A stretch of DNA of 64,000 nucleotides from Escherichia coli O127:H6 str. E2348/69 (lineage in GTDB: Bacteria; Pseudomonadota; Gammaproteobacteria; Enterobacterales; Enterobacteriaceae), in assembly GCF_000026545.1 (NCBI RefSeq), contig NC_011601.1. The stretch is one strand, 5' to 3'. The translations under genes and the position numbers were made by a program. Positions 1,541 to 35,233 of this stretch are shown piece by piece. Within the stretch, counting starts at the first letter, position 1. The number at the start of each line of letters is the position of its first letter. Under the pieces are notes generated by a model. The model was not told the DNA's origin, made no database searches, and worked only from the letters and a program-made list of their open reading frames with translations.

Positions 1541-1545
1541 TCGCT

Positions 1546-3916
<2,371 letters not shown>

Positions 3917-3917
<1 letters not shown>

Positions 3918-4983: not shown

Positions 4984-4984
<1 letters not shown>
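3917..4984 (+). CDS. hisB: Bifunctional histidinol-phosphatase / imidazoleglycerol-phosphate dehydratase
   Basis: ATG at 3917 ([14 protein letters not shown]...); HAD-like N-terminus and IGPD C-terminus; overlaps hisC stop by 1 nt. Confidence 0.95.
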
Positions 4985-7062
<2,078 letters not shown>

Positions 7063-7069
<7 letters not shown>

Positions 7070-7743: not shown

Positions 7744-7802
7744 GCCTACACATTATCTCAACACACGTAGGCCGGATAAGATGCGCCAGCATCGCATCCG
7801 GC
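7744..7802. repeat. REP (repetitive extragenic palindrome) element
   Basis: GCCTACA...GTAGGCCGGATAAGATGCGCCAGCATCGCATCCGGC, typical enterobacterial REP sequence between hisI and wzzB. Confidence 0.8.
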
Positions 7803-7839
7803 AAAAAAAACGGGCATGGTGTCACCACCCTGCCCGTTT
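7803..7839 (-). terminator. Rho-independent terminator for wzzB (possibly bidirectional with the his operon)
   Basis: Hairpin CGGGCA-14 nt-TGCCCG; on the minus strand it is followed by an 8-nt U-run (A8 at 7803-7810 on plus strand); lies between convergent hisI and wzzB. Confidence 0.75.
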
Positions 7840-7859
7840 CTCTTAAATGCACAATAATA

Positions 7860-8840: not shown

Positions 8841-8983
8841 TACCCTAACGGACGAAATAATTTTAAGTCGCCATAGTTTAGCGATAATCGCCATGAATGC
8901 TATAGGATAAATGATAAAAACAATGAATTATTACAAAGGGAACATGAGAGAATCAGGGCGAAAATCGCCCTGATAACAGGATG

Positions 8984-10159
<1,176 letters not shown>

Positions 10160-10340
10160 TCAGAATTAACTTAACTGTGAATCATGATGTTTTTAGCATC
10201 CTGATAAGAGCTAAAAGTTTTAACGCTACGTTGTTCGATGGTCAACGCAACGAAAAACAATTCAGATTTTCTTTATAAGAATAGCTGATATTTATTAAGT
10301 TAATATTAAGCAGTGAAATTTAGTCTATAAGATAATTGGC

Positions 10341-10372
10341 AAAAAAAAGCCCGGTGCAATATACGCCGGGCC
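10341..10372 (-). terminator. Rho-independent terminator downstream of gnd
   Basis: Hairpin GCCCGGTGCAATATACGCCGGGC with an A8 run on the plus strand (U-run on minus strand), 27 nt downstream of the gnd stop. Confidence 0.75.
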
Positions 10373-10398
10373 TCAATTTTATTGTTGGTTAAATCAGA

Positions 10399-11805
10399 TT
10401 AATCCAGCCATTCAGTATGGAACACACCTTCTTTATCAATGCGCTTATAAGTATGCGCACCGAAATAGTCACGCTGTGCCTGGATCAGGTTCGCAGGCAG
10501 AACAGCGGCACGGTAGCTATCGTAATAGGCAACCGCAGCAGCGAAGGTCGGAACCGGGATACCGTTCTGTACTGCATAAGCAACGACATCACGCAGCGCC
10601 TGCTGGTAGTCATCGGCAATTTGCTTGAAGTACGGAGCCAGCAGCAGGTTAGCGATCTGCGGATTTTCGGCATAAGCATCGGTGATTTTCTGCAGGAACT
10701 GCGCACGGATAATGCAGCCAGCACGGAAAATCTTCGCGATTTCGCCGTAGTTCAGATCCCAGTTGTACTCTTCAGACGCCGCACGCAGCTGAGAGAAGCC
10801 CTGAGCGTAAGAAACGATTTTGCCCAGATACAGCGCACGACGAACTTTCTCGATGAACTCACCTTTGTCGCCAGCTGGCTGCGCTTGCGGGCCAGAGAGA
10901 ACTTTAGATGCGGCAACACGCTGCTCTTTCAGAGAAGAGATATAACGTGCAAACACAGACTCGGTAATCAGCGACAGCGGTTCGCCGAGATCCAGCGCGC
11001 TCTGGCTGGTCCATTTACCGGTACCTTTGTTAGCCGCTTCATCCAGGATCACATCAACCAGGTAGTTACCGTCTTCATCTTTTTTAGTGAAGATGTCTTT
11101 GGTGATGTCGATCAGGTAGCTGCTCAGTTCACCGTTATTCCACTCGGTAAAGGTCTGTGCCAGTTCTTCGTTAGAGAGATTCAGGCCACCTTTAAGCAGA
11201 GAATAGGCTTCAGCAATCAGCTGCATATCACCGTATTCAATACCGTTGTGAACCATCTTCACATAGTGACCTGCGCCATCGGCACCAATATAGGTAACGC
11301 ATGGCTCACCGTCTTCAGCTACTGCGGCGATTTTGGTCAGGATCGGAGCAACCAGTTCATAGGCTTCTTTCTGGCCACCAGGCATAATGGAAGGACCTTT
11401 CAGCGCGCCCTCTTCACCACCGGAAACACCGGTACCGATGAAGTTAAAGCCTTCGGCAGAAAGCTCACGGTTACGGCGAATGGTGTCCTGGAAGAATGTA
11501 TTACCACCATCAATGATGATGTCACCTTTATCGAGGTACGGCTTGATGGAATCAATAGCAGCATCCGTGCCAGCACCTGCTTTCACCATTAACAGGATGC
11601 GACGAGGCGTTTCCAGAGATTCAACAAACTCTTTCACCGTATAGTAAGGAACCAGTTTCTTGCCTGGATTTTCGGCAATCACTTCTTCCGTCTTTTCACG
11701 GGAACGGTTGAAAATAGAGACGGTATAACCACGGCTTTCGATGTTGAGCGCAAGGTTGCGCCCCATCACTGCCATACCGACTACGCCGATCTGTTGCTTT
11801 GACAT
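10399..11805 (-). CDS. gnd: 6-phosphogluconate dehydrogenase (decarboxylating)
   Basis: 468 aa [21 protein letters not shown]... Confidence 0.96.
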
Positions 11806-11925
11806 TGTTTACTCCTGTCAGGGGTGGTTACCGCCAAGTGTGCGGCTTGGATATGATGCAGATGTTAATATAAATACAGGTAAATCTCACATGTAATGTC
11901 AATGAGAATTGAAACAATGAAAACT

Positions 11926-12825
11926 CTACATTGCTATCCAGTTTTCATTTTTAAGAGAGCATTCATTTCCGGATATGTACCATTGTTTAGGCGCGATGAC
12001 TAGCTTATCTTCTGACCTGTTTAGCCATGCCCCCCACCAACTATATGTGCTGTTTGCAATAATATTATTATTACACAATGACATTAAATACATATCAATT
12101 ACACTAAATTTGTTTTCATCAGCATCAGCAACCAAGCAATTGCTATATTTTGAGAATTTTTCCTTTGCCCATATGACATCATCTGTAAAGATTATAAATG
12201 TCTGAGAGCCACATTCACTTTCAATGTATTCCATTGCACTAATATAATAATCCATACTTAGAGTGCCGTGAAATTTTGCAGCATGTTTATTATTTACATA
12301 ATCTCCACGTCGCACATGAATTGACGTTATATTCTTAGAGTCAGTAATTAAGGAATATATTTGTAGGTTATGACATAACACGCGAAGATCATCACGTATT
12401 TCAAAAAGGGGCAAAATTAAATCCCTATGTTCATTTAATAATTTAGAATCTTGGTAAAATGAGAATAGACACGCAACATCAATGTTTTTAATTGATTCCG
12501 GATTGTAATAAGAAGCATCATTTAATGAATATTTATTACACAGTTTAATTGCAGTGAACTGAAGAAAACTGTTAAGCAGTGGTATTTTTTTATGTTTCCT
12601 CAAACGATTTATTTTTACTTTTTCATCTTTAGAACTAAACCTATCAAAAATAATTTTAAATTGATCAAGCTCAAGATGTCGTATAGTATCTTTTTGAGGC
12701 TGGTTGAAATAATAACTATCATCAAGCACTAATATAGTATCAGGAAAATGTTGCTTAAGGATATAGGCTGCAGCATATTGGAACATTTGATTACCTAACC
12801 CACCGGATAGACAGCAATACATCAT
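11926..12825 (-). CDS. Alpha-1,2-fucosyltransferase (GT11 family); last gene of O-antigen cluster
   Basis: 299 aa; GT11 hallmarks GGLGNQMFQYA near N-terminus and HVRRGDY motif; very AT-rich DNA. Confidence 0.8.
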   Translation of the reverse strand: MMYCCLSGGLGNQMFQYAAAYILKQHFPDTILVLDDSYYFNQPQKDTIRHLELDQFKIIFDRFSSKDEKVKINRLRKHKKIPLLNSFLQFTAIKLCNKYSLNDASYYNPESIKNIDVACLFSFYQDSKLLNEHRDLILPLFEIRDDLRVLCHNLQIYSLITDSKNITSIHVRRGDYVNNKHAAKFHGTLSMDYYISAMEYIESECGSQTFIIFTDDVIWAKEKFSKYSNCLVADADENKFSVIDMYLMSLCNNNIIANSTYSWWGAWLNRSEDKLVIAPKQWYISGNECSLKNENWIAM

Positions 12826-12832
12826 TAAGTCC

Positions 12833-13570
12833 TTATTTAACTAATGCTTTAATAAAATGATATGTACAAGAAAGAAAACTCATTATACTTTTCTTTTTAA
12901 GAAATTCTCGCAAAGAATACCCAGCACATTCATAATATGCCAGTTTAGACTTCTGTGTTGAATTTGAGTGAACACGGTAATTTAACAAAGGCTCTTCCAT
13001 ATTATCCCAACGTGGTTTTAAGCTTCGCATTCTTAACCACAAATCATAATCTTCAGAGTTAAAACCACCATTATACCCTCTTGTTTTAAGAAACAAATCT
13101 TTTCTGAACATTATTGAAGGATGTGCGAAACAGTTTCGAAACATTATATATCTATTTATTAATTTTTGTCTGGGGTAAAGCCTTACACCTAAAAAACCAT
13201 CATTTTCATCAATTAGATTTATTGAGGTTCCAATTAAATCAAGTTCATTATCTATAAGATATTTAATTTGCTTTTGAAGTCGGTTAGGTAAGGCTATGTC
13301 ATCAGAATCCATCCTCGCGATGATATCATATTTAGCTTTGGATATTGCCAAATTTAAAGAAAAAGCCAATTGCCCTATATTGGTTTCAATAATATTAACA
13401 TTCTCTGTTTGTTTTATGTTATTTTTTAAGACACGGGCAATGTCACTGGCTTCATTGCCATTAGCAACAATTATTAACTCATATTTTTTATAAGTTTGAT
13501 TCAATATGCTATTTATCGCAGGCATTACATATGAATCATATTTATTTATACACATAATTACAGAAATCAT
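12833..13570 (-). CDS. GT2-family glycosyltransferase (O-unit)
   Basis: 245 aa; GT-A N-terminus and DSDD (DxD) motif; AT-rich. Confidence 0.75.
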   Translation of the reverse strand: MISVIMCINKYDSYVMPAINSILNQTYKKYELIIVANGNEASDIARVLKNNIKQTENVNIIETNIGQLAFSLNLAISKAKYDIIARMDSDDIALPNRLQKQIKYLIDNELDLIGTSINLIDENDGFLGVRLYPRQKLINRYIMFRNCFAHPSIMFRKDLFLKTRGYNGGFNSEDYDLWLRMRSLKPRWDNMEEPLLNYRVHSNSTQKSKLAYYECAGYSLREFLKKKSIMSFLSCTYHFIKALVK

Positions 13571-14737
13571 TTAAACATCTTCCTTTCTAGCGCATATAGT
13601 TTTTATAACCACTAAATATGAAAATATAAGCGGCAATATGAAAAATATCATATTTACAAAATTATTATACATCATCGCAAATATGCAGGCCATAATGACA
13701 AATGGTTGAAAAACAAATGCAAAAGGAGACGTATTTCGCTGTAAATATATTAATTGAATTATGAACCCAACCAAATAGGCATATATTACGCTGAATATAC
13801 CCAATGAAACATAAGCACTTCCTACAAAACCTATAGGTGAGGTAACATCTGGAAACTCCAAGCTAATTGGTGACGCTGGAATGATTTTTTGAGGTAAAAA
13901 CCAATTGAAGAAATAAAACACATCCTGTATATTATTTTGAATAACATAGTTAAAATTAACAACAGGTGAACCGAAATAAAAACCGCCAACAAATCTAAAT
14001 AAAAAATCAAAACTCAATGATAAATTTTGTTCAGGATTTCGAATTATGCGCGTAAATGAAAATAAAAAAATGACTACACCTCCTATTATAACTCCTTTAT
14101 TAATAGATATTCTCCGTCTGGAAAATAGCATCAAAGCTAATAAAACATATAATAAAGATTGCAATTTCGCATAACTAATAAATTTGATTATTATAACCAA
14201 TATACTTATAAAAACAATAGCTCGATTATCTTTTATCAAACGAGATATACCATACATAATAATACCAAAATAGCCCAACATTACAGATATTCCATGTATT
14301 CCCAGCGGAGATGAAGCAATCTGAGACTCTATTGTTTGAGCAGAGACACCACCGCTAATATATATATTATATATATTAGCTTCGTGCATGTAATACTGGG
14401 TTACAATTAAACTTATTACATTTGAATAAAAAACAAACTTTAATAACCCATTATAAAAAGAAAAGTTGTATAAGTAGTGGCTTCTATGGTTGCTATGTTT
14501 TTGATAATTAAATAAATACGCAAAAAAAGCCCCAAAAAGAAAAAACAAATAAAAAACTAAAGATATAAAAAACACCGTATAATCAGGTTTTTGATTAAAT
14601 ATAAAGAATGAATTCCATTCTTCTTCACTGGTATATAATTGAAAAAAAGTGTTTAAAACGATTGACATTAAAATTAATATAACGGGATTAAAGAAACGTC
14701 TAAAATCATTACTTTTTGGAATTGTTATCTGCATCAT
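13571..14737 (-). CDS. wzy: O-antigen polymerase
   Basis: 388 aa, highly hydrophobic multi-TM protein with no soluble-domain motifs; position between wzx and GT genes; AT-rich. Confidence 0.7.
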   Translation of the reverse strand: MMQITIPKSNDFRRFFNPVILILMSIVLNTFFQLYTSEEEWNSFFIFNQKPDYTVFFISLVFYLFFLFGAFFAYLFNYQKHSNHRSHYLYNFSFYNGLLKFVFYSNVISLIVTQYYMHEANIYNIYISGGVSAQTIESQIASSPLGIHGISVMLGYFGIIMYGISRLIKDNRAIVFISILVIIIKFISYAKLQSLLYVLLALMLFSRRRISINKGVIIGGVVIFLFSFTRIIRNPEQNLSLSFDFLFRFVGGFYFGSPVVNFNYVIQNNIQDVFYFFNWFLPQKIIPASPISLEFPDVTSPIGFVGSAYVSLGIFSVIYAYLVGFIIQLIYLQRNTSPFAFVFQPFVIMACIFAMMYNNFVNMIFFILPLIFSYLVVIKTICARKEDV

Positions 14738-14744
14738 CTTAATC

Positions 14745-15398
14745 TTATTCCGAGTCTGGATATTTAAATTCTGAAAGAATCAGTTCTAGTTCTTCATAAT
14801 CTTTTTCCCACCATTTCATTTTTTCCAACTTATTTCTTGTATCATCATTAAAACGATAATAAAGTACTTTACAAGGAACCCCTGCAGCAACAGCATAAGG
14901 AGGTATATTCTTAGTAACAACTGAGCCAGCCCCAATAATAGCGCCATTACCTACAGTTACTCCATCCAATATAACCGTATTCGCACCCAAACATACATCA
15001 TGACCAATCATAATTCTTTTGGTTTCTTCAAATGTATGCGAATCCGGAGGTGGACAGCTTTTAGAAAGCCAATGTATTGAATTTTTCCCATAACAGAATG
15101 GATGCGTCGATATATATTCCGACACAGGATGTTTACCTAATCCCATTTTCACACTTTCTGCAATAGAACAATACCGACCGATTGACGTGTTCAATATTGT
15201 ACAATTCCTCTGAATATAAGTATGACGTCCAATATTTGAATTATAAAGCAATGTATTGTTATACACTTTTATATTCTCCTCAAATGTTACATGCCTTATT
15301 CTCGCTCCGGGATAAACACTAACGCCTTGAAAACATAGAATAATGTTTTTAATTAAATAGCATATAGGTAACAGTATATATTCTTTTATTATATTCAT
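14745..15398 (-). CDS. Hexapeptide-repeat O-acetyltransferase
   Basis: Left-handed beta-helix repeats (IGHDVCLGANTVILDGVTVGNGAIIGAGSVV); ATG at 15398 overlaps wzx stop as ATGA; ORF track extends to a GTG at 15461. Confidence 0.7.
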   Translation of the reverse strand: MNIIKEYILLPICYLIKNIILCFQGVSVYPGARIRHVTFEENIKVYNNTLLYNSNIGRHTYIQRNCTILNTSIGRYCSIAESVKMGLGKHPVSEYISTHPFCYGKNSIHWLSKSCPPPDSHTFEETKRIMIGHDVCLGANTVILDGVTVGNGAIIGAGSVVTKNIPPYAVAAGVPCKVLYYRFNDDTRNKLEKMKWWEKDYEELELILSEFKYPDSE

Positions 15399-16666
15399 CT
15401 TGCTCTCATTAATAAAAATATTCCGCCAATTGAAAAAGATATACTTGCATATGCTATCCACATCATGCCGCCAATTGAAATAGAGTTATTTCCTTTCATG
15501 AAATGGAATAAAATAAACATGCTTAATGCAGAAATAATATTACTGAACAGTATAATTCCCCCTGCGTTTAATCGAACAAGGTTTGTATAGATAAATGTAT
15601 ATGGTATATTTATTAAAACTGAGAGGCAAATAAGAGCTAAAGCCCCCCCTCCATGATTAGCTATATAATGATTTCTTGTCCATAAATATAAAATATCAGA
15701 TGAAAATATTATTGTCAGACCAATAGGGAAAGCTAATACCAATAGCATAATTATCATTTTTTTTAACGATAGAACATTAAATATACTCTTTTCCCCTTGT
15801 GATGATAAAGCTGGTAACAATGACTTCATCAAAGGATATTGTAGCTGTAAAAAAGATAATCCCAGTTGTGCAACAATAACATATACTCCATATAACTGTG
15901 TTTCCACGTAGTGTGATAATAATATTTTATCTAACTGTGAAACAAACACACCAACAATCACACCAAATGAAAATATATAGTTCTCTTTAACCAAATCAAT
16001 TAATTGAATCAATATATTATTATCTATTAAGCCTTTAAGATCTATATTATTGCGAGTAATCCATAAAAAATTAAAAATAAATTCTATACAGGTAACCACT
16101 GCGAAGGAAACTATATATACTATAGGTTCTGGATTTACCATCAATGAAATCAGCGCGACACAATGTTTACATGAAAAAAAACACACTTGGCTTAAATTAG
16201 TATTAAATTGCTTTTGAGTACCATTCCAAAAACCTATATTGAGATTATTTGCAAATTGAAATAGGAATTGAATTGCAAGCAATCTTATACAAAACTCTAA
16301 CTCCCTACTGCTATGCCCTGCATTAAACCATCTAAATGCCAACCAACCAGCCGAACTGGTTAGAAAAACCGCCCCAACAAAAGCAACAGCAATATATATC
16401 CAAAAATATGCAAAAAATATGTTTTCTGGCGTATTCGTTTTAGCAATATCGCGAGGCATAATCTGCGAACACCCAGCATCCAGAATAAGTAACATAGCCT
16501 GGATACTTAAACAAGCAGAGACGATACCCCATCCATGGGGACCTAGTAGCTTGATATAAAAGGGTATAAGGACTATTATCCCCCCCCCCATCCAAATCAT
16601 ACCAATGTAATTAAACATTGTGTTTCGTAAGAATATATTATTTTTAAAAGAGGATATTATTGACAT
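15395..16666 (-). CDS. wzx: O-antigen flippase
   Basis: 423 aa polytopic membrane protein, position and hydrophobicity typical of Wzx; contains a G9 tract (plus-strand C9 at 16579-16587). Confidence 0.7.
   Translation of the reverse strand: MSIISSFKNNIFLRNTMFNYIGMIWMGGGIIVLIPFYIKLLGPHGWGIVSACLSIQAMLLILDAGCSQIMPRDIAKTNTPENIFFAYFWIYIAVAFVGAVFLTSSAGWLAFRWFNAGHSSRELEFCIRLLAIQFLFQFANNLNIGFWNGTQKQFNTNLSQVCFFSCKHCVALISLMVNPEPIVYIVSFAVVTCIEFIFNFLWITRNNIDLKGLIDNNILIQLIDLVKENYIFSFGVIVGVFVSQLDKILLSHYVETQLYGVYVIVAQLGLSFLQLQYPLMKSLLPALSSQGEKSIFNVLSLKKMIIMLLVLAFPIGLTIIFSSDILYLWTRNHYIANHGGGALALICLSVLINIPYTFIYTNLVRLNAGGIILFSNIISALSMFILFHFMKGNNSISIGGMMWIAYASISFSIGGIFLLMRAR
16579..16587. repeat. Homopolymeric C9/G9 tract inside wzx coding sequence
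   Basis: CCCCCCCCC on plus strand, encoding GGG (MIWMGGGIIVL) near the Wzx N-terminus. Confidence 0.9.
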
Positions 16667-16678
16667 ATAGATGTTTTT

Positions 16679-18052
16679 TTATTTTTCTTTTAATAAATTA
16701 ATAATAATTGCCGTATTATTTTCCATCACGAGCTGATCACCTCTTGATTCAACGTTCAAACGCACAACAGGTTCGGTGTTGGAGGAGCGCAGGTTAAAGC
16801 GCCAGTTGGCAAAGGCCATACTGATGCCATCGGTGCGATCCACCGCCAGCGCCTCACGGCTAAAATGCTGTTCCACGCGGTTAATCGCCTCAACGGGGTG
16901 CGTGAGTTTGCTGTTGATCTCACCACTTGCCGGAAAAGCCGCCATCCGGTCGCGCACCAGTTCGCCCAGCGTTTTCCCTTTCAGGCACACCAGTTCGGCG
17001 ACCAGCAGCCACGGGATCATGCCGCTGTCGCAGTAAGCGAAATCACGGAAGTAATGGTGGGCGCTCATTTCGCCACCGTAGATAGCGTCTTCCTTACGCA
17101 TACGTTCTTTAATAAAGGCGTGTCCGGTTTTCGACATTATTGGCGTACCGCCTGCGGCAGTCACCACATCAACGGTGTTCCAGGAGAGACGTGGATCGTG
17201 GATGATCTTCGCGCCGGGATTTTTTTCGAGGAACGCCTCTGCCAGCAAACCGACAATGTAGTAACCCTCAATAAACTGCCCTTTTTCGTCAAACAGGAAA
17301 CAGCGGTCAAAATCGCCATCAAAAGCAATGCCCATATCCGCGCCGTGTTTAATGACCGCATTGCGGGTGTCGTCGCGACATTCCGGCAGTAGCGGGTTAG
17401 GAATACCGTTGGGGAAATTGCCGTCCGGCGTGTTATGCACTTTGATTAACTCCACCGGTGCGCCGAGGGCTTTAAAGCGGGCTTCAATGGCGTCCACCAC
17501 CGGACCCGCCGCGCCGTTCCCGGAGTTAATCACCAGCTTGAGCGGCGTGAGGTTTTTGACGTTGATATAACCGAACAGGTGATCAACGTAAGCTTCACGC
17601 AGATTGATTTGCTGATAGCGACCGCGTTTGGTTTCATCGACGGGAGGGAAGTCGTTGGCTTCTGCCAGACGCTGGACATCGCGCAGTCCGGTATCACCGC
17701 TGATCGGGCGAGCCCCCTCGCGCACCAGCTTCATGCCGTTGTAATCCATCGGGTTATGGCTGGCAGTAACTTCGATGCCGCCATCCACGCCGAGATGGAA
17801 CGTAGCGAAATAGATCTCTTCGGTGCCGGACATGCCGATATCCAGCACATCGACGCCCGCATCCTGTAAACCTTTCGCCAGCGCCAGTTTTAAGGTTTCG
17901 CTGGTGAGGCGGACATCACCACCTAAAACAATAGTTTTCGGTTTGAGAAATTCGCCATAGGCACGCCCAATACGCCAGGCAATATCTTCATTCAGTTCTT
18001 CGCCTAATTTTCCGCGAATATCGTAGGCTTTAAAGCAGGTTAATTTTTTCAT
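16679..18052 (-). CDS. manB: Phosphomannomutase, O-antigen copy
   Basis: 457 aa [16 protein letters not shown]..., TASHNP active-site motif; near-identical to the colanic copy cpsG except for the last ~20 residues. Confidence 0.93.
16750..18052. repeat. manB direct repeat, copy A (O-antigen locus)
   Basis: Aligns with 33740-35042 at offset 16990, roughly 96 percent identity by eye; homology ends exactly at the ATG. Confidence 0.8.
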
Positions 18053-18055
18053 TTA

Positions 18056-19513
18056 TTAGTCATCTATTTTGTAACGTTCTTTTTGACGAACAATATCATC
18101 CTCACCTAAATAATCTCCTGAACTAACTTCAATAAGATTGAGAGGAATTATACCTGGATTTTCAAGGCTATAAGTAGCACCCAGAGGAATATAAACGGAT
18201 TCATTAGCAGTAACTAAGAAAGTTTTATTATTTAACGTTACTTTTGCTGTACCTGAAAGGACAATCCAATGCTCTGAACGATGATGATGCATACGTAAGG
18301 ATAGCCCTTCCCCTGGTTTAACGACAATCTTTTTGACCTTATATCGATCTCCCTGTTCTATAGCATCAAACTTTCCCCAAGGACGAAATTCCTCGCGATG
18401 TGATAGATATTCAGAACGTTCTTGCATTTTAAGCATTTGAACAATTTTCTTAACATCCTGAACTTCGGATTTTTTTGAAACTAGAATTGCATCTTTCGTC
18501 TGAACAATAACAATATCCTCCACACCTACAGCGGCTACTAAGGCTGACTCCGAATGAATATAATTATTTTTTGTATTATAAGTCAGGATATCACCTTTGC
18601 AAACGTCCCCTGTAGGAGTTTTATCACTAACGTCCCACAATGATTGCCAAGATCCAACATCGTTCCAACCAATATCAACGGGATAGACTATACAACGCTT
18701 TGTTTTTTCCATTACTGCAAAATCAATTGATTCCGATGGACAATTTTGAAAAACATCTTTCGAAAGTCGTATAAAATCAAGATCATGGTAGGACGAAGAA
18801 ACTGTTTTTTCACATATATCGTATATATCAGGTCTGTATTTTTTTAACTCCTCTAAATATACTGATGCTTTGAACATAAACATCCCACTATTCCAGAGAT
18901 ATTTACCTGAGGAGATATACTCTTCAGCCCTTGAGCGATTAGGTTTTTCAACAAATTGTTCCACGTGATAGAATGTATTACCAACTCCACGTTGTGATTC
19001 TTTAACTATACTCCCTTTTTCTATATAACCGTAACCAGTTTCTGCATAATCAGGAATAATACCAAATGTTAAAATATTTCCTTGTTCAACAATTGAAATG
19101 GAATTTTTAATAGCATTACAAAAAACATCTGTTTTGTTTATAACATGGTCAGCTGCAAGAACTAAAAGTATAGGATCTTGTTGTTCATTACGCTTTAAGG
19201 CTGTAAATGCTGAAAGTGCTATAGCTGGTGCAGTATTTCTTCCACATGGTTCAAGAATAATGTTATCGCTTAATTGGTTTATTTGACGCAATTGTTCTGC
19301 GACCACAAAACGATGCTGCTCGTTAGTTATTACTAATGGAGTTTCGCAAGAAAGCGGGGATAGTCGTAATAAAGTTGACTGTAATAAAGTATTCTCACCT
19401 GATAATTGCAGAAATTGCTTCGGATAGTGCTCTCTTGAGAGGGGCCAAAGACGGCTACCCGTACCACCAGCCATTACAACAGCAATCAACGGTACATCAG
19501 ACATTTTTGACAT
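18056..19513 (-). CDS. manC: Mannose-1-phosphate guanylyltransferase, O-antigen copy
   Basis: 485 aa; [11 protein letters not shown] motif; AT-rich and clearly diverged from the colanic copy cpsB. Confidence 0.9.
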
Positions 19514-20000
19514 CCTTTTTATCTAAACCAATAACAGCACTTGGATCATGATTAAAATAAGCTCGGCTGTTAGCGTGAACATTGTTACTGGCGAGCAGCG
19601 CGTCCGGCGTCAGCCAGCGGTAATCGTCATGCTGCTCATCCGGCAGTAACAGCTCTTCTTCCGCTACCCTGAAGCGAAAACCGAGCACCACATAGTGAGT
19701 GGTGAAATCCGTGCCGGAGAAGTTGTCGTCATAAAAGTGCTGCCAGACACCGTAAAACTGGCCTGCTGTTATCTGCAGACGCAGCCCCAGTTCCGCCATC
19801 GTCAGCCGCTCAAATGCGGCTTCCAGCGTTTCGTCTTTCTGCACGCGCCCTCCCGGCACAAACCAGTAACCCTGCGCCGGGCGGTTGGTTCTTTTGCCAA
19901 GCAGAAACTCGCCGCGACTGTTCTCGACAATAAAGTCGAGAGAGACAAGCGGAGTGGAGCGCACTACCGTGGCAAAGTCTTCCTGACGTAAAAACATCAT
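19497..20000 (-). CDS. gmm: GDP-mannose mannosyl hydrolase (Nudix), O-antigen copy
   Basis: 167 aa [13 protein letters not shown]...; Nudix box [23 protein letters not shown]; matches the colanic copy closely except for the C-terminal ~18 residues. Confidence 0.9.
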
Positions 20001-20965
20001 TACCCCCGAAAGCGGTCTTGATTCTCAAGGAACCACTGGTAAGTGCTGGCAAGCCCCGCTTCCAGTGAGATTTCGTGATACCAGCCAAGCTGATGCAGGC
20101 GCGTCACATCCAGCAGTTTGCGCGGCGTACCATCCGGTTTACTGGCATCAAAAACCACCCGACCTTTGTAACCCACCACTTTGGCGATGGTTTGCGCCAG
20201 TTCACGGATGGTGCAGTCAACGCCCGTGCCGACGTTAATGTGCGACAACATCGGCTGGGTGTTTTCCAGCCAGACTTCGTGCGCCAACTCCATCACATGA
20301 ATGCTTGCCGCCGCCATATCATCGACGTGCAGAAATTCGCGCATCGGTGTACCGCTGCCCCACACCACCACGTCCGGTGCATTCTGTGCCGTCGCCTCGT
20401 GGAAGCGACGCAGCAATGCAGGTATCACATGGGAGTTACTCGGGTGGAAGTTGTCATGCGGCCCGTACAGGTTGGTCGGCATGACTGAGCGGTAATCGCG
20501 TCCGTACTGGCGATTGTAAGATTCGCACAGTTTGATCCCGGCGATTTTGGCAATAGCATAAGGCTCGTTAGTCGGCTCCAGCGTGCCCTTCAACAGCTCG
20601 CTTTCTGCCATCGGCTGTTTTGCCAGTTTCGGGTAGATACAGGACGATCCAAGAAACAGCAGTTTGTTCACGTCGTTCTGATGCGCGGCGTGAATGATGT
20701 TGCTCTCAATCATCATGTTCTGGTAGATGAAATCCGCCGGATAGGTGTTGTTGGCAACAATGCCGCCCACTTTCGCCGCCGCCAGATAGACCTGGTCAAT
20801 GCGTTCGCTGGCAAAGAAATCATGCACCGCGCGGCTGTCCAGCAGGTTCAGCTCGTCGCGGGTGCGTAATACCAGTTCCACATCACCGCGCTGTTCGAGC
20901 TGCCGCCTGATGGCAGAACCGACCATTCCGCGATGGCCAGCGATAAAAATGCGTTGTCTACTCAT
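20000..20965 (-). CDS. fcl: GDP-L-fucose synthase, O-antigen copy
   Basis: 321 aa; protein identical to the colanic copy at 38376-39341. Confidence 0.95.
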
Positions 20966-20967
20966 GC

Positions 20968-22089
20968 TTATGACTCCAGCGCGATCGCCACGTCGTAGCC
21001 GTGAGATTTCAGCAGAGAGTGTTTTTTCGCCGCTTCGAGGTCATTAGCCACCATTTCAGACACCATCTCTCTGAGGGTGATTTCCGGTTTCCAGCCCAGT
21101 TTTTCGTGCGCTTTGGTCGGGTCGCCGAGCAGCGTTTCAACTTCAGCCGGACGGAAGTAGCGCGGATCAACCTTAACGATTACATCTCCAGGTTTAACTG
21201 CTGGAGCATCCTCACCATTAACAGAAACCACTATCCCCTTCTCATCTACACCTGTGCCTTCAAAACGCAGTTTGATTCCGACTCGCTCCGCCGCCATTTC
21301 CACGAACTGACGCACGGAGTACTGAACGCCGGTCGCGATGACGAAATCTTCCGGCTGTTCCTGTTGCAGCATCATCCACTGCATTTTTACGTAGTCTTTG
21401 GCATGGCCCCAGTCACGCAGGGAATCCATATTGCCGAGGTACAGGCACGATTCCAGCCCCTGGGCGATGTTTGCGATTGCGCGGGTGATTTTGCGGGTAA
21501 CGAAGGTTTCGCCGCGGCGCGGGGATTCATGGTTGAAGAGAATACCGTTACAGGCGTACATGCCGTAGGATTCGCGGTAGTTAACGGTGATCCAGTAGGC
21601 ATACAGTTTGGCGACCGCATACGGAGAGCGTGGGTAGAACGGCGTGGTTTCTTTCTGCGGAATTTCCTGCACCAGACCGTACAGTTCAGAAGTGGAAGCC
21701 TGATAAAAACGGGTTTTCTTTTCCAGACCGAGGAAGCGGATCGCCTCCAGCAGGCGCAGCGTACCCATCGCATCGACGTCAGCGGTATATTCCGGTGACT
21801 CAAAAGAAACCGCAACGTGACTCATTGCGCCCAGGTTGTACACTTCATCCGGCTGCACTTCACACAAAATGCGCGTCAGGTTGGAGGTATCTGTCAGATC
21901 GCCATAATGCAGATGGAATTTCGGGTTGCAGGTGTGCGGATCCTGATAAATGTGATCCACGCGCTCGGTGTTGAATGACGATGCACGACGCTTAATACCA
22001 TGCACCTCGTAACCTTTTTCCAGCAGAAACTCTGCCAGGTAAGAACCGTCTTGTCCGGTTATGCCAGTAATGAGAGCGACTTTAGCCAT
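20968..22089 (-). CDS. gmd: GDP-mannose 4,6-dehydratase, O-antigen copy
   Basis: ATG at 22089 gives [18 protein letters not shown]...; ORF track begins at an upstream TTG (22119). Confidence 0.93.
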
Positions 22090-22115
22090 TTTACATTTCC
22101 TGTTCTTAAAAATAC

Positions 22116-23132
22116 TCAACCTAAAATAATGCTTTTATATGCTGAAGCATAGTTCTCGATAACAAATTTCCCGGAGGCACGAATTGCCTGTTCCCGATAA
22201 TTTTCATAGTCATCGAATATTTTATCCAATTTATATCCAATGTCGTCTTCAGTATTTTCCACAAGTAACCCATTACCCTCAATTAATTCAAAACATCCGC
22301 CCACATCACTTAACAGGAGTGGTATTGCAGCTGTGTGAGCCTCAAGGCCTGACATAGGCAAACCTTCACTATCGGATATCAGTGAAAATAAATCATACTC
22401 ATGATAGTTATAAAAATTATTGACCTCACCCAAAAAATGAATATTTTCACATTCACTGAATTGTTTCTTCAATGATTCTAACCTTTCCCCCCCTCCTACG
22501 ATATGGAGGCTATACTGGGGCTTTTTCGATATTACATTCGCTAACAACTCGGGGCGCTTAGGGTGTGTTAACCTACCAACAAACAGAACCTTATACTGGA
22601 GTTGTTTATTATTACATCTCGGCATCTGAGGCACTGAATTCGATACTGTGATTATCTTTGGTTCTTTTATACCAATATTCTCAATTGCCTTTTTTTCATC
22701 ACTTTTGGAAACACACCATATAACATCAGTTAATAAAGAAAGGTATTTTTCCACAATGCAAAAAATTGATTTTAGGCGACCACCATTATATAAACAAGAC
22801 CATCCATGCGAAACATAAATACATTTAAAGTCGACTAGTAATCGAACTAACCTGGCATAAACTCCGGCATTAGCAGAACTTGCTATTAACGTTGAAATGT
22901 TATTTTCTTTTAAAATTTTTCTCAATTTAAACAATGTAAGGAAGTCAAAATATTTTTTAATACCTGGTATGACAAAAACTCCGGCAAAGACATCTTTATG
23001 TGTGAGCCATCCTTCTTCAGATGTAATAAGAAATATATTACATTCCTCTTTAATAAGGTTAGATATTTCATTTACCCATGTTTGTGCACCACCAATTTCT
23101 GATTTTGTAACAATAAAACCAACATTTTTCAT
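22116..23132 (-). CDS. GT4-family glycosyltransferase (O-unit)
   Basis: 338 aa; GT-B fold features and a C-terminal EX7E-like region; AT-rich. Confidence 0.7.
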
Positions 23133-23150
23133 ATATCAAAATTCCAAAAA

Positions 23151-24170
23151 TTATTTTTTATATCCATTTGGATTGTTTGTTTGCCAACGCCATACATCTT
23201 CGATCATTTCTTTCAATTTTTTTTCCGCTTTCCAGGAAAGCTTTTTATGTGCTAAATCAGCAGACGCCCATGACTCCGCAACATCCCCCTCACGTCTATT
23301 ACAAATAGCAACAGGTATACTCTTTTTAGTGACTATCTCAAACATTTTTACAATCTCTAAAACAGAATAACCTTGACCAGTGCCTAAATTAAAAGCTTCA
23401 TAATTGACATCATTTAAAAACATATATTCTAATGCTTTAACATGCCCTTTAGCCAAATCACAGACATGTATATAGTCTCTTACTCCTGTACCATCTTTAG
23501 TTGGATAATCGTTGCCATAAATATTTAATACAGGAAGTTGATTTTGTGCAACTTTAGATATATAAGGAACCAGATTATTAGGAATCCCGTTAGGATTTTC
23601 ACCAATCATCCCGGACTTATGTGCTCCGATTGGATTAAAGTAACGCAGTGCAATTACTGATTTATTATTATCACTATCACAATAATCACTCAAAATTATT
23701 TCTATTATAAATTTCGATGTCCCATATGGGTTTGTAGTTTCACCAATTCGTCTATCTTCCGTATGGGGAGGGATACTGTTATTCCCATAAACAGTAGCAG
23801 AAGAGCTAAATATCATTTTATTAATGTTATATCTCTTCATGCATTCAAGTAATACTAAAGTTCCACCAACATTATTAGAATAATACTCTAAGGGCTTTAA
23901 CTTAGACTCACCTACAGATTTTAACGATGCAAAGTGAATTACAGCATCGATATGGTGTCTTGAAAAAATCTCATCAAGTAGATTTTTATCACGGATATCA
24001 CCTTGATAAGAAATAATTTTCTTATTAGTTATTTGCTCTACTCTTTTTAATGATTCTATAGAGGAATTGACAAAATTATCTATCGAAACGACATCATGAC
24101 CATTATTAAGTAACTCAAGTATGGTATGGGATCCAATATATCCTGCACCGCCTGTTACGAAAATCACCAT
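23151..24170 (-). CDS. UDP-hexose 4-epimerase (GalE/Gne-like); first gene of O-antigen cluster
   Basis: ATG at 24170 gives MVIFVTGGAGYIGSH...; YGTSK catalytic motif; ORF track extends upstream to a TTG at 24239. Confidence 0.85.
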   Translation of the reverse strand: MVIFVTGGAGYIGSHTILELLNNGHDVVSIDNFVNSSIESLKRVEQITNKKIISYQGDIRDKNLLDEIFSRHHIDAVIHFASLKSVGESKLKPLEYYSNNVGGTLVLLECMKRYNINKMIFSSSATVYGNNSIPPHTEDRRIGETTNPYGTSKFIIEIILSDYCDSDNNKSVIALRYFNPIGAHKSGMIGENPNGIPNNLVPYISKVAQNQLPVLNIYGNDYPTKDGTGVRDYIHVCDLAKGHVKALEYMFLNDVNYEAFNLGTGQGYSVLEIVKMFEIVTKKSIPVAICNRREGDVAESWASADLAHKKLSWKAEKKLKEMIEDVWRWQTNNPNGYKK

Positions 24171-24199
24171 ATAAACCTCCTTTACCATGAGGATTGAGA

Positions 24200-24245
24200 G
24201 AAAAACACACGCTACCGCCCTTGGCTTAACAGTTACCAACTCACT
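24200..24245 (-). promoter_or_regulatory. JUMPstart region with ops element (RfaH-dependent antitermination) in O-antigen operon leader
   Basis: Plus-strand CACGCTACCGCC at 24208-24219 is the reverse complement of the ops consensus GGCGGTAGCGTG; lies between galF and the first O-antigen gene. Confidence 0.8.
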
Positions 24246-24479
24246 GAAAATGAATCATAGGTACTAAGCATTTAATACTTTTCACTATTTTCCAATTGTC
24301 TAACCAAACGAAGTCAGATACAAGGAAAATCTATGTCCGAGCGATACTTGCGGTAACTTATTGTTATTAAATACTTTAAATAAAAGACAGGAACATTCTT
24401 ATAATGTAAGCATCTCTGCTTTTGAATGTTCACTGCCGTTCTATTTTTATTCAATCCACCATATATGGATGATTAATTT

Positions 24480-25373
24480 TTATTCGCTTAACAGCTTCTC
24501 AATCCCTTTACGGAACTTCGCCCCTTCTTTCAGGTTGCGTAGTCCATACTTCACAAACGCCTGCATATAACCCATTTTTTTACCGCAGTCGTAGCTGTCG
24601 CCGGTCATCAGCATGGCATCAACGGACTGTTTTTTCGCCAGCTCGGCAATGGCATCAGTCAGCTGAATACGTCCCCATGCACCAGGCTGAGTACGTTCAA
24701 GTTCCGGCCAAATATCGGCAGAAAGCACATAGCGACCAACGGCCATGATGTCTGAGTCCAGCGTCTGCGGCTGATCCGGCTTTTCGATGAATTCAACAAT
24801 GCGGCTGACTTTACCTTCACGATCCAGTGGTTCTTTTGTCTGAATGACTGAGTATTCAGAGAGCTCACCCGGCATACGTTTTGCCAGCACCTGGCTGCGT
24901 CCCGTTTCATTGAAGCGCGCAATCATGGCAGCAAGGTTGTAGCGTAGCGGGTCGGCGCTGGCGTCGTCGATCACAACGTCTGGCAGCACCACGACAAATG
25001 GATTGTCACCAATGGCAGGTCGCGCACATAAAATGGAGTGGCCTAAACCTAAAGGTTCACCCTGACGCACGTTCATAATGGTCACGCCCGGCGGACAGAT
25101 AGATTGTACTTCCGCCAGTAGTTGACGCTTCACGCGCTGTTCAAGGAGAGATTCTAATTCATAAGAGGTGTCGAAGTGGTTTTCGACCGCGTTCTTGGAC
25201 GCATGAGTTACCAGGAGGATTTCTTTGATCCCTGCAGCCACAATCTCGTCAACAATGTACTGAATCATTGGCTTGTCGACGATCGGTAGCATCTCTTTGG
25301 GTATCGCCTTAGTGGCAGGCAACATATGCATCCCAAGACCCGCTACCGGTATAACTGCTTTTAAATTCGTCAT
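24480..25373 (-). CDS. galF: UTP-glucose-1-phosphate uridylyltransferase paralogue
   Basis: 297 aa [43 protein letters not shown]... Confidence 0.95.
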
Positions 25374-25615
25374 TATTTTCCTACCTCTAAGTGGCTGATA
25401 GTGCGTAAATTATTGCCATAGGTTAGCCAAACGGTATGGCTATATACCATAGCTTAGTTCCGCATAACTTTGATTAAACCTTACGATAACACTACACACC
25501 ATCAGCATCTGGGTTACTCGGATTACTCGGAAATCCACATACTGATAATTTAATCAGTACCTCTTTCCGAATAATCGTAGTCCAACCTGGTCCTTTTTTC
25601 TCTGACTCGTCTGCA

Positions 25616-26611
25616 TTACTCAGAAACAAACGTTATGTCGTCTTTTTTGGCATGAACGAATTCATACTGCAGAGTTCGATCCAGACCTTGCGACAGCGTA
25701 TACGGTGCCACAAAACCTGAAGAATGCACTTTCGTTGCGTCAAACTGTGTTGTTGCGCAGAATTTTTTCACGCGCACAGAGCTGACAGCGTATTTTTTGC
25801 CAGTAATTTTGCTCAGGATATCAAAGCAATATCCACCCAGCATTCCTAGTGGGTAAGGCAAGTGCATAGAAGGGATCTTTTTGTTTAGGCTTTGTTCAAC
25901 TTCAGCAACCAACTGGTTCATATTCAGGTCTGGCTTATCAACGTAGTTATAAACCTCGTAACCTGCGGCAACATTCTTCAGTTTGTACTTGATAAACTCA
26001 ACAATGTTTCCAACATAAGCCATGGACTTATAGTTAGTCCCTGCGCCCACCATCATAAACTTGCCGCCAGCGATCTGTTTCAGCAAGTTATAGACGTTAC
26101 CGCGGTTCCGTTCACCGAAGATAACGGTAGGACGGATGATGGTTAATGAACGTTCTGTTGGTGCTTTGTTATACCATTCACGCAGCACTTCCTCTGCCTG
26201 CCACTTACTTTTGCCGTAGTGGTTGAAAGGATCGTGTGGATGGTTTTCGTCAGGGTTGTGTTTGTTCAAACCATAAACAGCAACGGAACTGGTAAAGATG
26301 ATATTTTTAACGCCATTTTTTTCCATGGCCGCCAGCACATTGCGGGTACCCTGAACGTTGACATCATAATAGAGAGAAGTAGGGCTGACGTCATCGCGGT
26401 GTTCCGCTGCCAGTAGTACAACAGTGTCAAAACCGGCTAACGCCTGGTCGAGTGCCTGTTGATCACGAACATCGCCAATCTGTGTGATTTCTGGATAAAA
26501 GTGGCTCTGCTGTTTGTCCAGGTTCTTGATATTAAAGTCAGCAATTGCCGTTTCAAGTAGTCGGGTTCCTACGAATCCGGAAGCTCCTATGAGCAAAACG
26601 TTATCGTTCAT
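25616..26611 (-). CDS. gne: NAD-dependent epimerase (Gne / Z3206-like UDP-GlcNAc or GlcNAc-P-P-Und 4-epimerase)
   Basis: 331 aa MNDNVLLIGASGFVGTRLLE...; YGKSK motif; sits between wcaM and galF, where some E. coli lineages carry gne. Confidence 0.8.
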   Translation of the reverse strand: MNDNVLLIGASGFVGTRLLETAIADFNIKNLDKQQSHFYPEITQIGDVRDQQALDQALAGFDTVVLLAAEHRDDVSPTSLYYDVNVQGTRNVLAAMEKNGVKNIIFTSSVAVYGLNKHNPDENHPHDPFNHYGKSKWQAEEVLREWYNKAPTERSLTIIRPTVIFGERNRGNVYNLLKQIAGGKFMMVGAGTNYKSMAYVGNIVEFIKYKLKNVAAGYEVYNYVDKPDLNMNQLVAEVEQSLNKKIPSMHLPYPLGMLGGYCFDILSKITGKKYAVSSVRVKKFCATTQFDATKVHSSGFVAPYTLSQGLDRTLQYEFVHAKKDDITFVSE

Positions 26612-26768
26612 AAATCACTTTAGTCTGGTTGTTACGTAAGAAACACAAGATAAAGATGAGTACCTTCCCTGAGTAGTCAATGCTGCCCAGCCCCAGCTTT
26701 AACAGTTAGTGTGAGGATTATAATCTTTTAGAACATTATATCCAGTAAGTTTATGAATGGTCGCAAAT

Positions 26769-28163
26769 CTACTCCCTCCGTTCTGGCAATCTAAAGTTAA
26801 TCTTTTCCACATTAACAATGTGGTGATTAACTCTGTCGATATCGACGGAGCTTTGCCCTTTTTCATTCACCGCATGAACATTTGCAAGTGACAGCAGTGT
26901 TTCTTTTTTCGCCATAAAGACGCCGCGAACGTCTTTGCGCATGTCGAAGTTCATGCTCAATGCGGGTCCAACTGAGGATTCCTGCATCACCTTGATATTT
27001 CGCATAAAAAGATGTTGCGGTTTGTTGTGTAACTCCAGCGACGCACGCTTCATCTCAATGTTAGTCAGCGCCACAAAGGAGACAGCATTCCCGGCAGAGA
27101 TTTGGATACCGCGCAATTTATAAGCAAGATGGGTGTTATCCATTTGAATATTATTCACTCGGAAATTTTGCGGTATTGAGAGATATTTGCCTTTAATTAC
27201 CCCATAGCCGATTAACATCCCAGCGCTATTAATCATTTCAATATTATCAATCACGAAATTGTCACAACCGTAAATAGCAACTGTCGCGTTATCAATGCCT
27301 GCTTTCTTGCTGAAATCCGGCGTGATATTGCGGGCTTTGATATTACGAATAACAAAATGTTTACCATTTTCAACATGGATCAACTGCCGACAATCCGATC
27401 CCGTGATATTCGCCACGACAAAGTTTTTCACTGCCTGGTCTTCCGGGTAGTTATTATCGTAGGTACTTCCCGCAAGGCCTATGCCGATACCCCAGTTGAT
27501 TTTGCCGTTGGTACAGTTGATGCGCTCGATGACATGGTCAGATATCAAAATATCACGGTCGTTAATCGCCACGTTCCATTCAATGGCGTCGCCCTGTAAA
27601 TCACTAAATTTACAGTTGGTGATGTTGGCACCGATAATCTGGTTATGAAATCCCTGGCGTAAGATGGCGTAATTAGCGTGGCTAACGGTCAGGTTATCGA
27701 TGGAGAGGTTACGCATTACTCGTTTGTTTTTGCCGCCGATATAAATCTGCGTTACCGGACCAAAGCCGCTCATCGTCAGCCCTTTGATGGTGCAGTCAGA
27801 GCCACGCACATCCAGGGTGATGTTATGCATACTGCCACCCTCCTCCCCTGTCACCTGGCTGCTGTCCTGTAAGACAAATCGCCCTCTGCCGTTGCCGCGC
27901 AGGCTTCCAAGGATGTGTAACGTTTTACCTGCAGGAATGAAGATGCCGGTGTTGATATTGTCGCAAACCAATCCGGCAGGCACGACGACCGTTTGCCCTT
28001 CGCCGAAGGCTTGTTTAAATGAGGCGATCCAGTCGTGTGGGTTGTAGTCGTTAATGTTAACGCTTTGTCGGGCGGGAAGTGCACGGGCGAAAGGGGTATG
28101 GAGGAAGGCAAGCGCGGAGCTTGCCGTCAGGAAGGTGCGTCGGGAGAGTTTTTTAAATGGCAT
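26769..28163 (-). CDS. wcaM: Colanic acid biosynthesis protein WcaM
   Basis: 464 aa with twin-arginine signal ([15 protein letters not shown]); last gene of colanic operon. Confidence 0.9.
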
Positions 28164-28173
28164 ACGTTCTCCT

Positions 28174-30671: not shown

Positions 30672-30742
30672 TTTTTCCTCATAAATTTGGTGCCAGGTGA
30701 GGTTATGTTGTTGTTTTTATTGCCGGAGCCTAAAACAACCAT

Positions 30743-32221: not shown

Positions 32222-32222
32222 A

Positions 32223-35132: not shown

Positions 35133-35233
<101 letters not shown>

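Follow-up and report, generated by a model that had tools for sequence, protein, structure and literature searches.

The region between galF and gnd is the O-antigen operon of Escherichia coli O127:H6 E2348/69 and has a mosaic composition

Positions 11926-24170 of the 64,000-nucleotide stretch of DNA analysed here (the window) are almost certainly the Wzx/Wzy-dependent O-antigen operon of the enteropathogenic E. coli O127:H6 strain E2348/69. The minus strand of this segment is filled exactly by 12 closely spaced open reading frames (ORFs) in the order gne, GT4, gmd, fcl, gmm, manC, manB, wzx, O-acetyltransferase, wzy, GT2 and GT11, and the RefSeq annotation of the identical record concurs. An earlier note, made from the letters alone, had listed the same 12 genes, and the ORFs, the annotation and the family matches all bear this out. 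The cluster is flanked by galF and gnd. The features of the locus and its surroundings are as follows.

7860-8837, minus strand: wzzB, chain-length regulator, in the downstream flank (7860-11805 in total).
8984-10150, minus strand: ugd, downstream flank.
10399-11805, minus strand: gnd, downstream flank.
11926-12825, minus strand: GT11 gene for WbiQ, α-1,2-fucosyltransferase, 299 aa (PF01531 over residues 2-297, E 1.3e-25; RefSeq name).
12833-13570, minus strand: GT2 gene for WbiP, 245 aa (GT2-type NCBIfam matches; exact match to UniProt Q5J7C7).
13571-14737, minus strand: wzy, O90/O127-type O-antigen polymerase, 388 aa (RefSeq name; exact match to UniProt Q5J7C8).
14745-15398, minus strand: gene for WbiO, hexapeptide-repeat O-acetyltransferase related to CatB and Vat, 217 aa (RefSeq "CatB-related O-acetyltransferase").
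15395-16666, minus strand: wzx, O90/O127-type O-unit flippase, 423 aa (RefSeq "O90/O127 family O-antigen flippase"; 100% identical to E2348/69).
16679-18052, minus strand: manB, phosphomannomutase, 457 aa (93.8% nucleotide and 95% amino acid identity to cpsG).
18056-19504, minus strand: manC, mannose-1-phosphate guanylyltransferase/mannose-6-phosphate isomerase, 482 aa (TIGR01479, 759 bits; cut-off 373).
19497-19997, minus strand: gmm, GDP-mannose mannosyl hydrolase, 166 aa (NF011963, 315 bits; cut-off 146).
20000-20965, minus strand: fcl, GDP-L-fucose synthase, 321 aa (WP_000089908.1, annotated at O-antigen and colanic loci).
20968-22089, minus strand: gmd, GDP-mannose 4,6-dehydratase, 373 aa (RefSeq annotation).
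22116-23132, minus strand: GT4 gene, O127 counterpart of WbnH (337/338 identical to WbnH of E. coli O86:H2, PDB 4XYW).
23151-24170, minus strand: gne, GalE-clade UDP-hexose/UDP-GlcNAc 4-epimerase, 339 aa (TIGR01179, 425 bits; cut-off 262).
24212-24251, minus strand: JUMPstart-like sequence with ops GGCGGTAG (24219-24212), from sequence reading and an ops search.
24480-25373, minus strand: galF, conserved flank upstream of the O-antigen locus (RefSeq annotation).
25616-26611, minus strand: gnu, Und-PP-GlcNAc 4-epimerase, 331 aa (RefSeq product name), upstream of galF.
37930-40465, minus strand: colanic gmd-fcl-gmm paralog block, which appears to exchange sequence with the O-antigen block (zero-difference tract at 38023-39535).

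The O127 assignment follows from the identity of the whole window, all 64,000 bases, to NZ_LT827011.1 of the serotyped strain (E. coli O127:H6 E2348/69); wzx/wzy typing gives O90/O127. The block of wzx, the acetyltransferase gene and wzy matches E2348/69 and further O127:H6 records at 100% identity, and of the 5,426 complete E. coli genomes searched only 10 contain it, all annotated as O90/O127 family. The earlier guess that the gene order matches that of O127 was therefore right, and the best matches of wzx and wzy belong to the fucose-containing O90/O127 group, not to a serogroup without fucose. The cluster is already known and well studied, and the finding is ordinary, with nothing new in it; its value is that inspection of the letters alone arrived at the correct serogroup and mosaic composition. 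The prototype EPEC strain is serotyped by its O127 antigen, a mimic of the human blood-group structure H type 3, and WbiP, WbiQ and the WbnH homologue serve in glycan synthesis. The identity and order of the genes, the match in sequence to the O127 strain and the mosaic of composition were observed directly in this analysis; we took enzyme specificities and the sugar structure from the literature.

The genes of the Wzx/Wzy pathway (wzx, wzy and wzzB) are all annotated, and no wzm/wzt-like ORF for an ABC transporter was found between galF and gnd. Under a strict threshold, hydropathy analysis detected at least nine strongly hydrophobic segments in Wzx (members of the MOP superfamily have about 12 transmembrane segments); at least eight were detected in Wzy. 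Pfam scans of both proteins gave zero matches even at E ≤ 10, and NCBIfam likewise gave none; the roles of Wzx and Wzy rest on curated RefSeq names, position and hydrophobicity. At the upstream end, the JUMPstart/ops sequence lies about 40 nt before the start of gne, with an AAGGAGG ribosome-binding site after it. As in RfaH/ops-controlled polysaccharide operons, ops (24212-24219, minus strand) is present in the 5′ leader, here that of gne; the 64-kb window holds 5 ops matches versus 1.13 expected. The JUMPstart/ops sequence marks the start of an RfaH-dependent O-antigen operon, and we infer that 11926-24170 forms one transcription unit.

The GT4 protein corresponds to WbnH, which has been crystallised and is an α-1,3-GalNAc transferase acting on GalNAc-PP-undecaprenol (PMC4506291). 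WbiP bears a DxDD motif (DSDD at residues 88-91). WbiP of O127, tabulated in a review under the E2348/69 accession B7UT68 (PMC4202792), has been characterised as a β-1,3-galactosyltransferase on GalNAc-α-R, and the role of DxDD has been described (PMC4202792). Similarly, WbiQ, which carries an HxRRxD motif (HVRRGD at residue 170), has been characterised and is specific for the T antigen (PMC4202792). WbiO, whose ATG overlaps the wzx stop (ATGA), matches hexapeptide, Vat and CatB models with E values of about 3.8e-43 to 7.5e-24, all under the equivalog cut-offs. A review links WbiO to fucose acetylation (PMC7685785), and fucose is its probable target here.

The published O127 unit is ->2)Fuc(a1-2)Gal(b1-3)GalNAc(a1-3)GalNAc(a1->, with the fucose acetylated (PMC7685785), in agreement with the O-acetylated Fuc/Gal/GalNAc repeat that had been predicted. 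The unit had also been described as a tetrasaccharide with terminal α-1,2-fucose. It is a tetrasaccharide, but the fucose occupies a terminal position only while the O unit is lipid-linked; after polymerisation it forms part of the chain and is substituted at O-2. GalNAc had been deduced from a pair of epimerases, and the published unit does contain it, but the partner of gne is gnu, which lies outside 11926-24170. Gnu acts on Und-PP-GlcNAc to give the first GalNAc, and Gne gives UDP-GalNAc for the second (PMC3682973). GalE and Gne are not separable by sequence, and the role of Gne2 in O86 was deduced genetically (PMC3682973). The Gnu protein is 99.4% identical to the copy in an O86 strain.

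Synthesis of the unit would start with WecA, encoded elsewhere, which would transfer GlcNAc-P to undecaprenyl phosphate. This probable first step is consistent with the cluster, in which no initiating phosphoglycosyltransferase was found; wecA and waaL are absent from the 64-kb window. Gnu would epimerise the WecA product to Und-PP-GalNAc, Gne would produce UDP-GalNAc, and the WbnH-type GT4 would add α-1,3-GalNAc, followed by β-1,3-Gal from WbiP. ManB, ManC, Gmd and Fcl would supply GDP-fucose, Gmm would act as an accessory hydrolase, and WbiQ would add α-1,2-Fuc to complete an H-type-3-like tetrasaccharide, whose fucose WbiO would O-acetylate. The unit would then be flipped across the membrane by Wzx and polymerised by Wzy through GalNAc(a1->2)Fuc, with chain length set by WzzB.

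GC content per gene is strongly bimodal (window mean 0.494). The AT-rich genes are those for GT11 (0.318), GT2 (0.294), Wzy (0.278), the acetyltransferase (0.336), Wzx (0.318), ManC (0.361), GT4 (0.344) and Gne (0.330), and the GC-rich genes are manB (0.527), gmm (0.527), fcl (0.557) and gmd (0.529). The GC content is thus not uniform (0.28-0.36 versus 0.53-0.56), and these values agree with the earlier description of manC as AT-rich and of gmd-fcl-gmm and manB as GC-rich. The segments 11926-16666 and 22116-24170 had been called AT-rich and serotype-specific. Both are AT-rich, but 22116-24170 is not serotype-specific, because its two genes are shared with O86: the Gne protein is 99.7% identical to that of the first gene of an O86 cluster, and GT4 is 100% identical to that of an O86 strain. 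manC is the AT-rich, imported form (58.6% amino acid identity to cpsB), and its product is 100% identical to ManC of an O86 strain. Imported, AT-rich genes (gne, GT4, manC, and wzx to GT11) are interleaved with the GC-rich gmd-fcl-gmm and manB.

The GC-rich genes are colanic-like, as had been proposed. Positions 19554-22089 are 97.5% identical to the colanic gmd-fcl-gmm block, the copies lying 18.4 kb apart, and 16721-18052 is 93.8% identical to cpsG (33711-35042). At the nucleotide level, fcl is 100% identical to colanic fcl at 38376-39341 (966/966), gmm is 99.1% identical to its colanic counterpart over 19554-19997, and gmd is 94.65% identical to colanic gmd at 39344-40465, its differences falling in a cluster at 21160-21289. 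The 3′ end of gmm (19497-19553), which overlaps the manC start, is cluster-specific, and manB is colanic-like save for its final ~42 nt. A tract of 1,513 bp at 19647-21159, spanning all of fcl and the adjoining ends of gmm and gmd, contains no difference at all (simulated mean 183, maximum 481), indicating recent gene conversion between the copies. GC values, paralog identity and this tract together support the mosaic of imported and locally converted DNA claimed before, and repeated gene conversion probably keeps the GC-rich genes close to their paralogs 18.4 kb away.

We also considered whether gmd-fcl-gmm and manB stem from an old single duplication of the colanic genes, inherited vertically with no ongoing exchange. 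The O86 cluster has these GC-rich genes at 98.4% identity, indicating that the shared ancestor of the O86 and O127 clusters already carried them. However, the differences between the copies are very uneven, with 0 over 1,513 bp and then 28 in the next 100 bp. Moreover, both fcl copies of E2348/69 have 9 differences to the O-antigen fcl of O86 and 30-39 to the colanic fcl of other strains, indicating that the colanic copy was overwritten, and strain S1 presents the opposite direction, its O-antigen fcl having 10-19 differences to colanic fcl and 35-36 to other O-antigen fcl. Vertical inheritance with no exchange is therefore very unlikely.

The 1,513-bp tract is of O-antigen type, indicating that colanic sequence was overwritten by O-antigen DNA in the E2348/69 lineage. 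In another assembly of E2348/69, CP059840.2, the 18,376 bp separating the two gmd genes are missing. We tentatively propose that active recombination is under way between the two sets of GDP-fucose genes in E2348/69, with both the overwritten colanic locus and the loss in CP059840.2 as outcomes, a reading that we hold to be quite possible if somewhat short of probable. A repeat-mediated 18.4-kb deletion in CP059840.2 would take out GT4, gne, galF and gnu together with half of the colanic cluster, and would leave that stock O-antigen-defective and colanic-acid-negative. A literature search by the accession CP059840 found no mention, and one on the O-antigen/colanic-acid gmd of E2348 found nothing relevant. 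Should this loss be genuine and previously undescribed, rough variants may be among the E2348/69 stocks now in use. Those who work with E2348/69 could benefit from two of these observations, the recent conversion between O-antigen and colanic loci and the 18.4-kb deletion in one assembly.

The O90 serogroup has to be weighed against O127, because RefSeq labels wzx and wzy "O90/O127 family", the O90 and O127 clusters are reported to be 98-99.9% or "almost 100%" identical (PMC7685785, PMC4732683), and a second allele group exists among the complete genomes (Wzy A70V/I210V/I348T; acetyltransferase Y213C). An O90 cluster would specify the same four sugars with β-1->4 between units and a different fucose acetylation. 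O127 and O90 are not separable by wzx and wzy alone, and with the O90 cluster nearly identical, sequence by itself does not prove the α-1->2 polymer linkage or the acetylation pattern. However, over all 64 kb the sequence is that of E2348/69, the O127:H6 prototype defined by serology; Wzy is Q5J7C8 and the GT2 is the adjacent entry Q5J7C7, with O127 WbiP tabulated under the E2348/69 accession B7UT68. We therefore give O90 almost no weight. CM2010-0578/1, the one hit whose match is 10 bp shorter, was rejected as an O90 representative because the many frameshifts annotated in its wzx, wzy, galE and glycosyltransferase genes suggest assembly errors. No acetyltransferase longer than 217 aa (O90 WerU is reported to be longer) was found in the cluster look-up.

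An O86-type (blood-group-B-like) locus is excluded for practical purposes: many O86-family genomes align at about 96% to 74% of 7800-26700, and 16736-26700 is 98.4% identical at the nucleotide level to the O86 strain 88COLEC, but neither wzx nor wzy shows significant similarity to its O86 counterpart, identity to O86 is only 59% for the GT2 and 49% for the GT11, and the GT6 gene wbnI is absent, with the acetyltransferase gene in its place, so that direct comparison with an O86 strain already refutes this reading at the sequence level.

Compared with known systems, the locus is identical to the O127 cluster and has its upstream part in common with O86. The O127 cluster (E2348/69, and the O127:K63(B8) deposit with WbiO, WbiP and WbiQ) has the same sequence, gene order and flanks, with zero differences in the window from the E2348/69 record; in the O127:K63(B8) deposit, the acetyltransferase entry Q5J7C9 (133 aa) corresponds to the C-terminal portion of the intact 217-aa ORF here. 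The colanic (wca/cps) genes have a GC content (~0.53-0.56) similar to that of the O-antigen gmd, fcl, gmm and manB, from which they differ in the cluster-specific last codons of gmm and manB, whereas colanic cpsB has only 58.6% amino acid identity to manC (GC 0.55 versus 0.36). The O90 cluster, by published description, has the same four sugars and a nearly identical sequence (PMC7685785; PMC4732683), and differs in its inter-unit linkage (β-1->4 versus α-1->2), in the position of fucose acetylation, and by small differences in Wzy and the acetyltransferase. The O86 cluster (gne2, wbnH, gmd, fcl, gmm, manC, manB, wzx, wbnI, wzy, wbnJ, wbnK) follows the same order of functional classes as O127 and has in common with it the seven upstream genes, galF and gnu at 98.4% nucleotide identity, with GT4, ManC and Gmd 100% identical in amino acids. 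This homology stops at about 16736, so that the 3′ end of manB is the junction; downstream of it five genes differ, the acetyltransferase of O127 standing where O86 encodes the GT6 galactosyltransferase WbnI. O127/O90 is set apart from O86 by wzx to GT11 only.

The interval 11926-24170 is filled exactly by 12 close-set ORFs on the minus strand. When their families were checked independently, the gene order claimed in the earlier note was borne out. In transcription order, the genes are:

23151-24170, minus, gne, GalE-like epimerase, scoring above the curated NCBIfam cut-off
22116-23132, minus, GT4 transferase, identical at 337 of 338 residues to crystallised WbnH of E. coli O86:H2 (PDB 4XYW)
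20968-22089, minus, gmd
20000-20965, minus, fcl
19497-19997, minus, gmm, above the curated NCBIfam cut-off
18056-19504, minus, manC, above the curated NCBIfam cut-off
16679-18052, minus, manB
15395-16666, minus, wzx, curated RefSeq name
14745-15398, minus, O-acetyltransferase, matching hexapeptide, Vat and CatB models
13571-14737, minus, wzy, curated RefSeq name
12833-13570, minus, GT2 transferase, DSDD (DxDD) motif at residues 88-91
11926-12825, minus, GT11 fucosyltransferase, Pfam PF01531 over its full length (E 1.3e-25) and an HVRRGD motif

Wzx and Wzy are polytopic membrane proteins that matched none of the Pfam and NCBIfam models, and their names come from RefSeq curation. The gne gene is preceded, at a distance of about 40 nt, by a JUMPstart-like sequence that includes the ops element GGCGGTAG. 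Further upstream are galF and a second epimerase gene, gnu (25616-26611); gnd, ugd and wzzB follow downstream. The paired epimerases that had been proposed thus exist, with the partner of gne outside the interval assigned to the cluster. The exact octamer GGCGGTAG occurs five times in the window, against 1.13 expected. The four extra copies are at 49663-49670, 50250-50257 and 36904-36911 (minus) and 62863-62870 (plus); two precede wza, where the colanic-acid operon starts, and the others, one within wcaI and one close to yegD/yegI, may be chance matches. Elsewhere, positions 1-7674 hold the end of the yefM antitoxin gene, the his leader and hisGDCBHAFI in their ordinary arrangement, and ISEc13 (IS4-like; transposase at about 56261-57634) cuts a gene at 55678-60553 for a diguanylate cyclase with a MASE1-domain N-terminus, leaving two pseudogene fragments in E2348/69.

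Over the wzx-acetyltransferase-wzy block, E. coli E2348/69 and further O127:H6 records matched at 100% identity. Of 5,426 complete E. coli genomes, only 10 had the block, and each was annotated as 'O90/O127 family'. NZ_LT827011.1 (E. coli O127:H6 EPEC E2348/69) matched 7800-26700 in a single piece at 100% identity, and direct string comparison showed that it contains the entire 64-kb window. Wzy and GT2 exactly matched UniProt Q5J7C8 and Q5J7C7, respectively. These identities show that the match to O127 suggested in the earlier note was correct; the cluster is already known in its sequence, enzymology and chemistry. What the note observed is confirmed and its interpretation holds, subject to four corrections: on the specificity of gne and GT4, the location of the partner epimerase, the position of fucose, and the separation of O127 from O90. 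In cluster look-ups, Escherichia fergusonii records carried Wzx, alpha-1,2-fucosyltransferase and acetyltransferase of the O90/O127 family at at least 90% identity, indicating that this O-antigen type is also found outside E. coli.

Published comparisons describe the O90 and O127 clusters as nearly identical (PMC7685785, PMC4732683). wzx and wzy cannot tell the two apart, and O127 is preferred over O90 here because the sequence is identical to that of E2348/69, a serotyped strain. Five complete genomes form a second O90/O127 allele group (Wzy A70V, I210V and I348T; acetyltransferase Y213C). In strain S1, which has an O90/O127-type cluster, differences from 13571-18650 fell mainly in 5' manB (17648-18023) and manC, with none in wzx. 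An IS1 lies between wzzB and ugd in S1 and CM2010-0578/1. According to a review, O127 WbiO (the acetyltransferase) corresponds to no more than the 3' end of O90 WerU (PMC7685785). The ORF is intact here (217 aa), and the protein of an older O127 deposit, Q5J7C9 (133 aa), is exactly its C-terminal part, from Met85. The reported difference may stem from annotation or from a defect of the older deposit, and not be a trait of all O127 strains.

The published O127 repeat is ->2)Fuc(a1-2)Gal(b1-3)GalNAc(a1-3)GalNAc(a1-> (PMC7685785). In the proposed pathway, WecA, encoded outside the window, would place GlcNAc-P on undecaprenyl phosphate; Gnu would convert Und-PP-GlcNAc to Und-PP-GalNAc and Gne would supply UDP-GalNAc, following the scheme deduced for O86, whose first two sugars are the same (PMC3682973). 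The WbnH-like GT4 would add GalNAc alpha-1,3 (PMC4506291) and WbiP (GT2) Gal beta-1,3 (PMC4202792). With GDP-fucose made via ManB, ManC, Gmd and Fcl, WbiQ (GT11) would put Fuc alpha-1,2 on the T-antigen-like acceptor (PMC4202792), with WbiO as the candidate enzyme for acetylating the fucose (PMC7685785). Wzx would flip the unit, Wzy would join units via GalNAc(a1->2)Fuc, and WzzB would set chain length. Given this Wzy linkage, the terminal alpha-1,2-fucose of the earlier note holds for the O unit; in the polymer, fucose is a residue within the chain.

Per-gene GC was bimodal around a window mean of 0.494, as had been claimed: GT11, GT2, wzy, acetyltransferase, wzx, manC, GT4 and gne were AT-rich (0.278-0.361), whereas manB, gmm, fcl and gmd were GC-rich (0.527-0.557). 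All four GC-rich genes are near-duplicates of colanic-acid genes found elsewhere in the window: 37930-40465 is 97.5% identical to 19554-22089, and cpsG (33711-35042) is 93.8% identical to 16721-18052. By contrast, manC is distant from cpsB, sharing only 58.6% of amino acids. The homology begins precisely at the start codons of gmd and manB, and ends a few dozen bases short of the gmm and manB stops.

Differences between the two gmd-fcl-gmm copies were distributed very unevenly. None was found over 1,513 bp (19647-21159 versus 38023-39535), a stretch that spans the whole of fcl and the neighbouring ends of gmm and gmd, and 28 occurred in the next 100 bp. When the same number of differences was placed randomly in 2,000 trials, the longest identical run had a mean length of 183 bp and was at most 481 bp. 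An independent Korean isolate of the O127 type carries this tract too, which excludes an assembly artefact. Compared with the O-antigen fcl of an O86 strain, each of the two fcl copies in E2348/69 has 9 nt differences, as against 30-39 relative to the colanic fcl of other strains. The tract is of O-antigen type, which indicates that the colanic locus was the one converted, the O-antigen copy having overwritten colanic fcl. In S1, the O-antigen fcl resembles colanic fcl, indicating conversion in the opposite direction. Taken together, the difference pattern and these directions make the reading of the cluster as a patchwork of imported and locally converted DNA well supported.

In another E2348/69 assembly, NZ_CP059840.2, O-antigen gmd is joined straight to wcaF as a hybrid gmd, with the crossover between 21340 and 21451 by informative sites. 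The 18,376 bp between the two gmd genes (22090-40465) are absent, and with them GT4, gne, galF, gnu, wcaM to wcaI, cpsB, cpsG and colanic gmm and fcl. Either the stock is truly rough and colanic-negative, or the 2.5-kb repeat was collapsed during assembly; a real deletion would predict loss of both O antigen and colanic acid in that stock.

The O86 strain 88COLEC was 98.4% identical over 16736-26700 (manB through gnu). Its GT4, manC and gmd proteins were 100% identical and its gne product 99.7%, whereas wzx and wzy were unrelated, GT2 and GT11 were 59% and 49% identical, and the GT6 gene wbnI stood in place of the O127 acetyltransferase gene. The genes gne and GT4 are AT-rich, as the earlier note had it, but, being shared with O86, they are not serotype-specific. 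The comparison agrees with the published account, in which the first seven genes are common to the O86 and O127/O90 clusters and the last five differ through recombinational replacement (PMC7685785).
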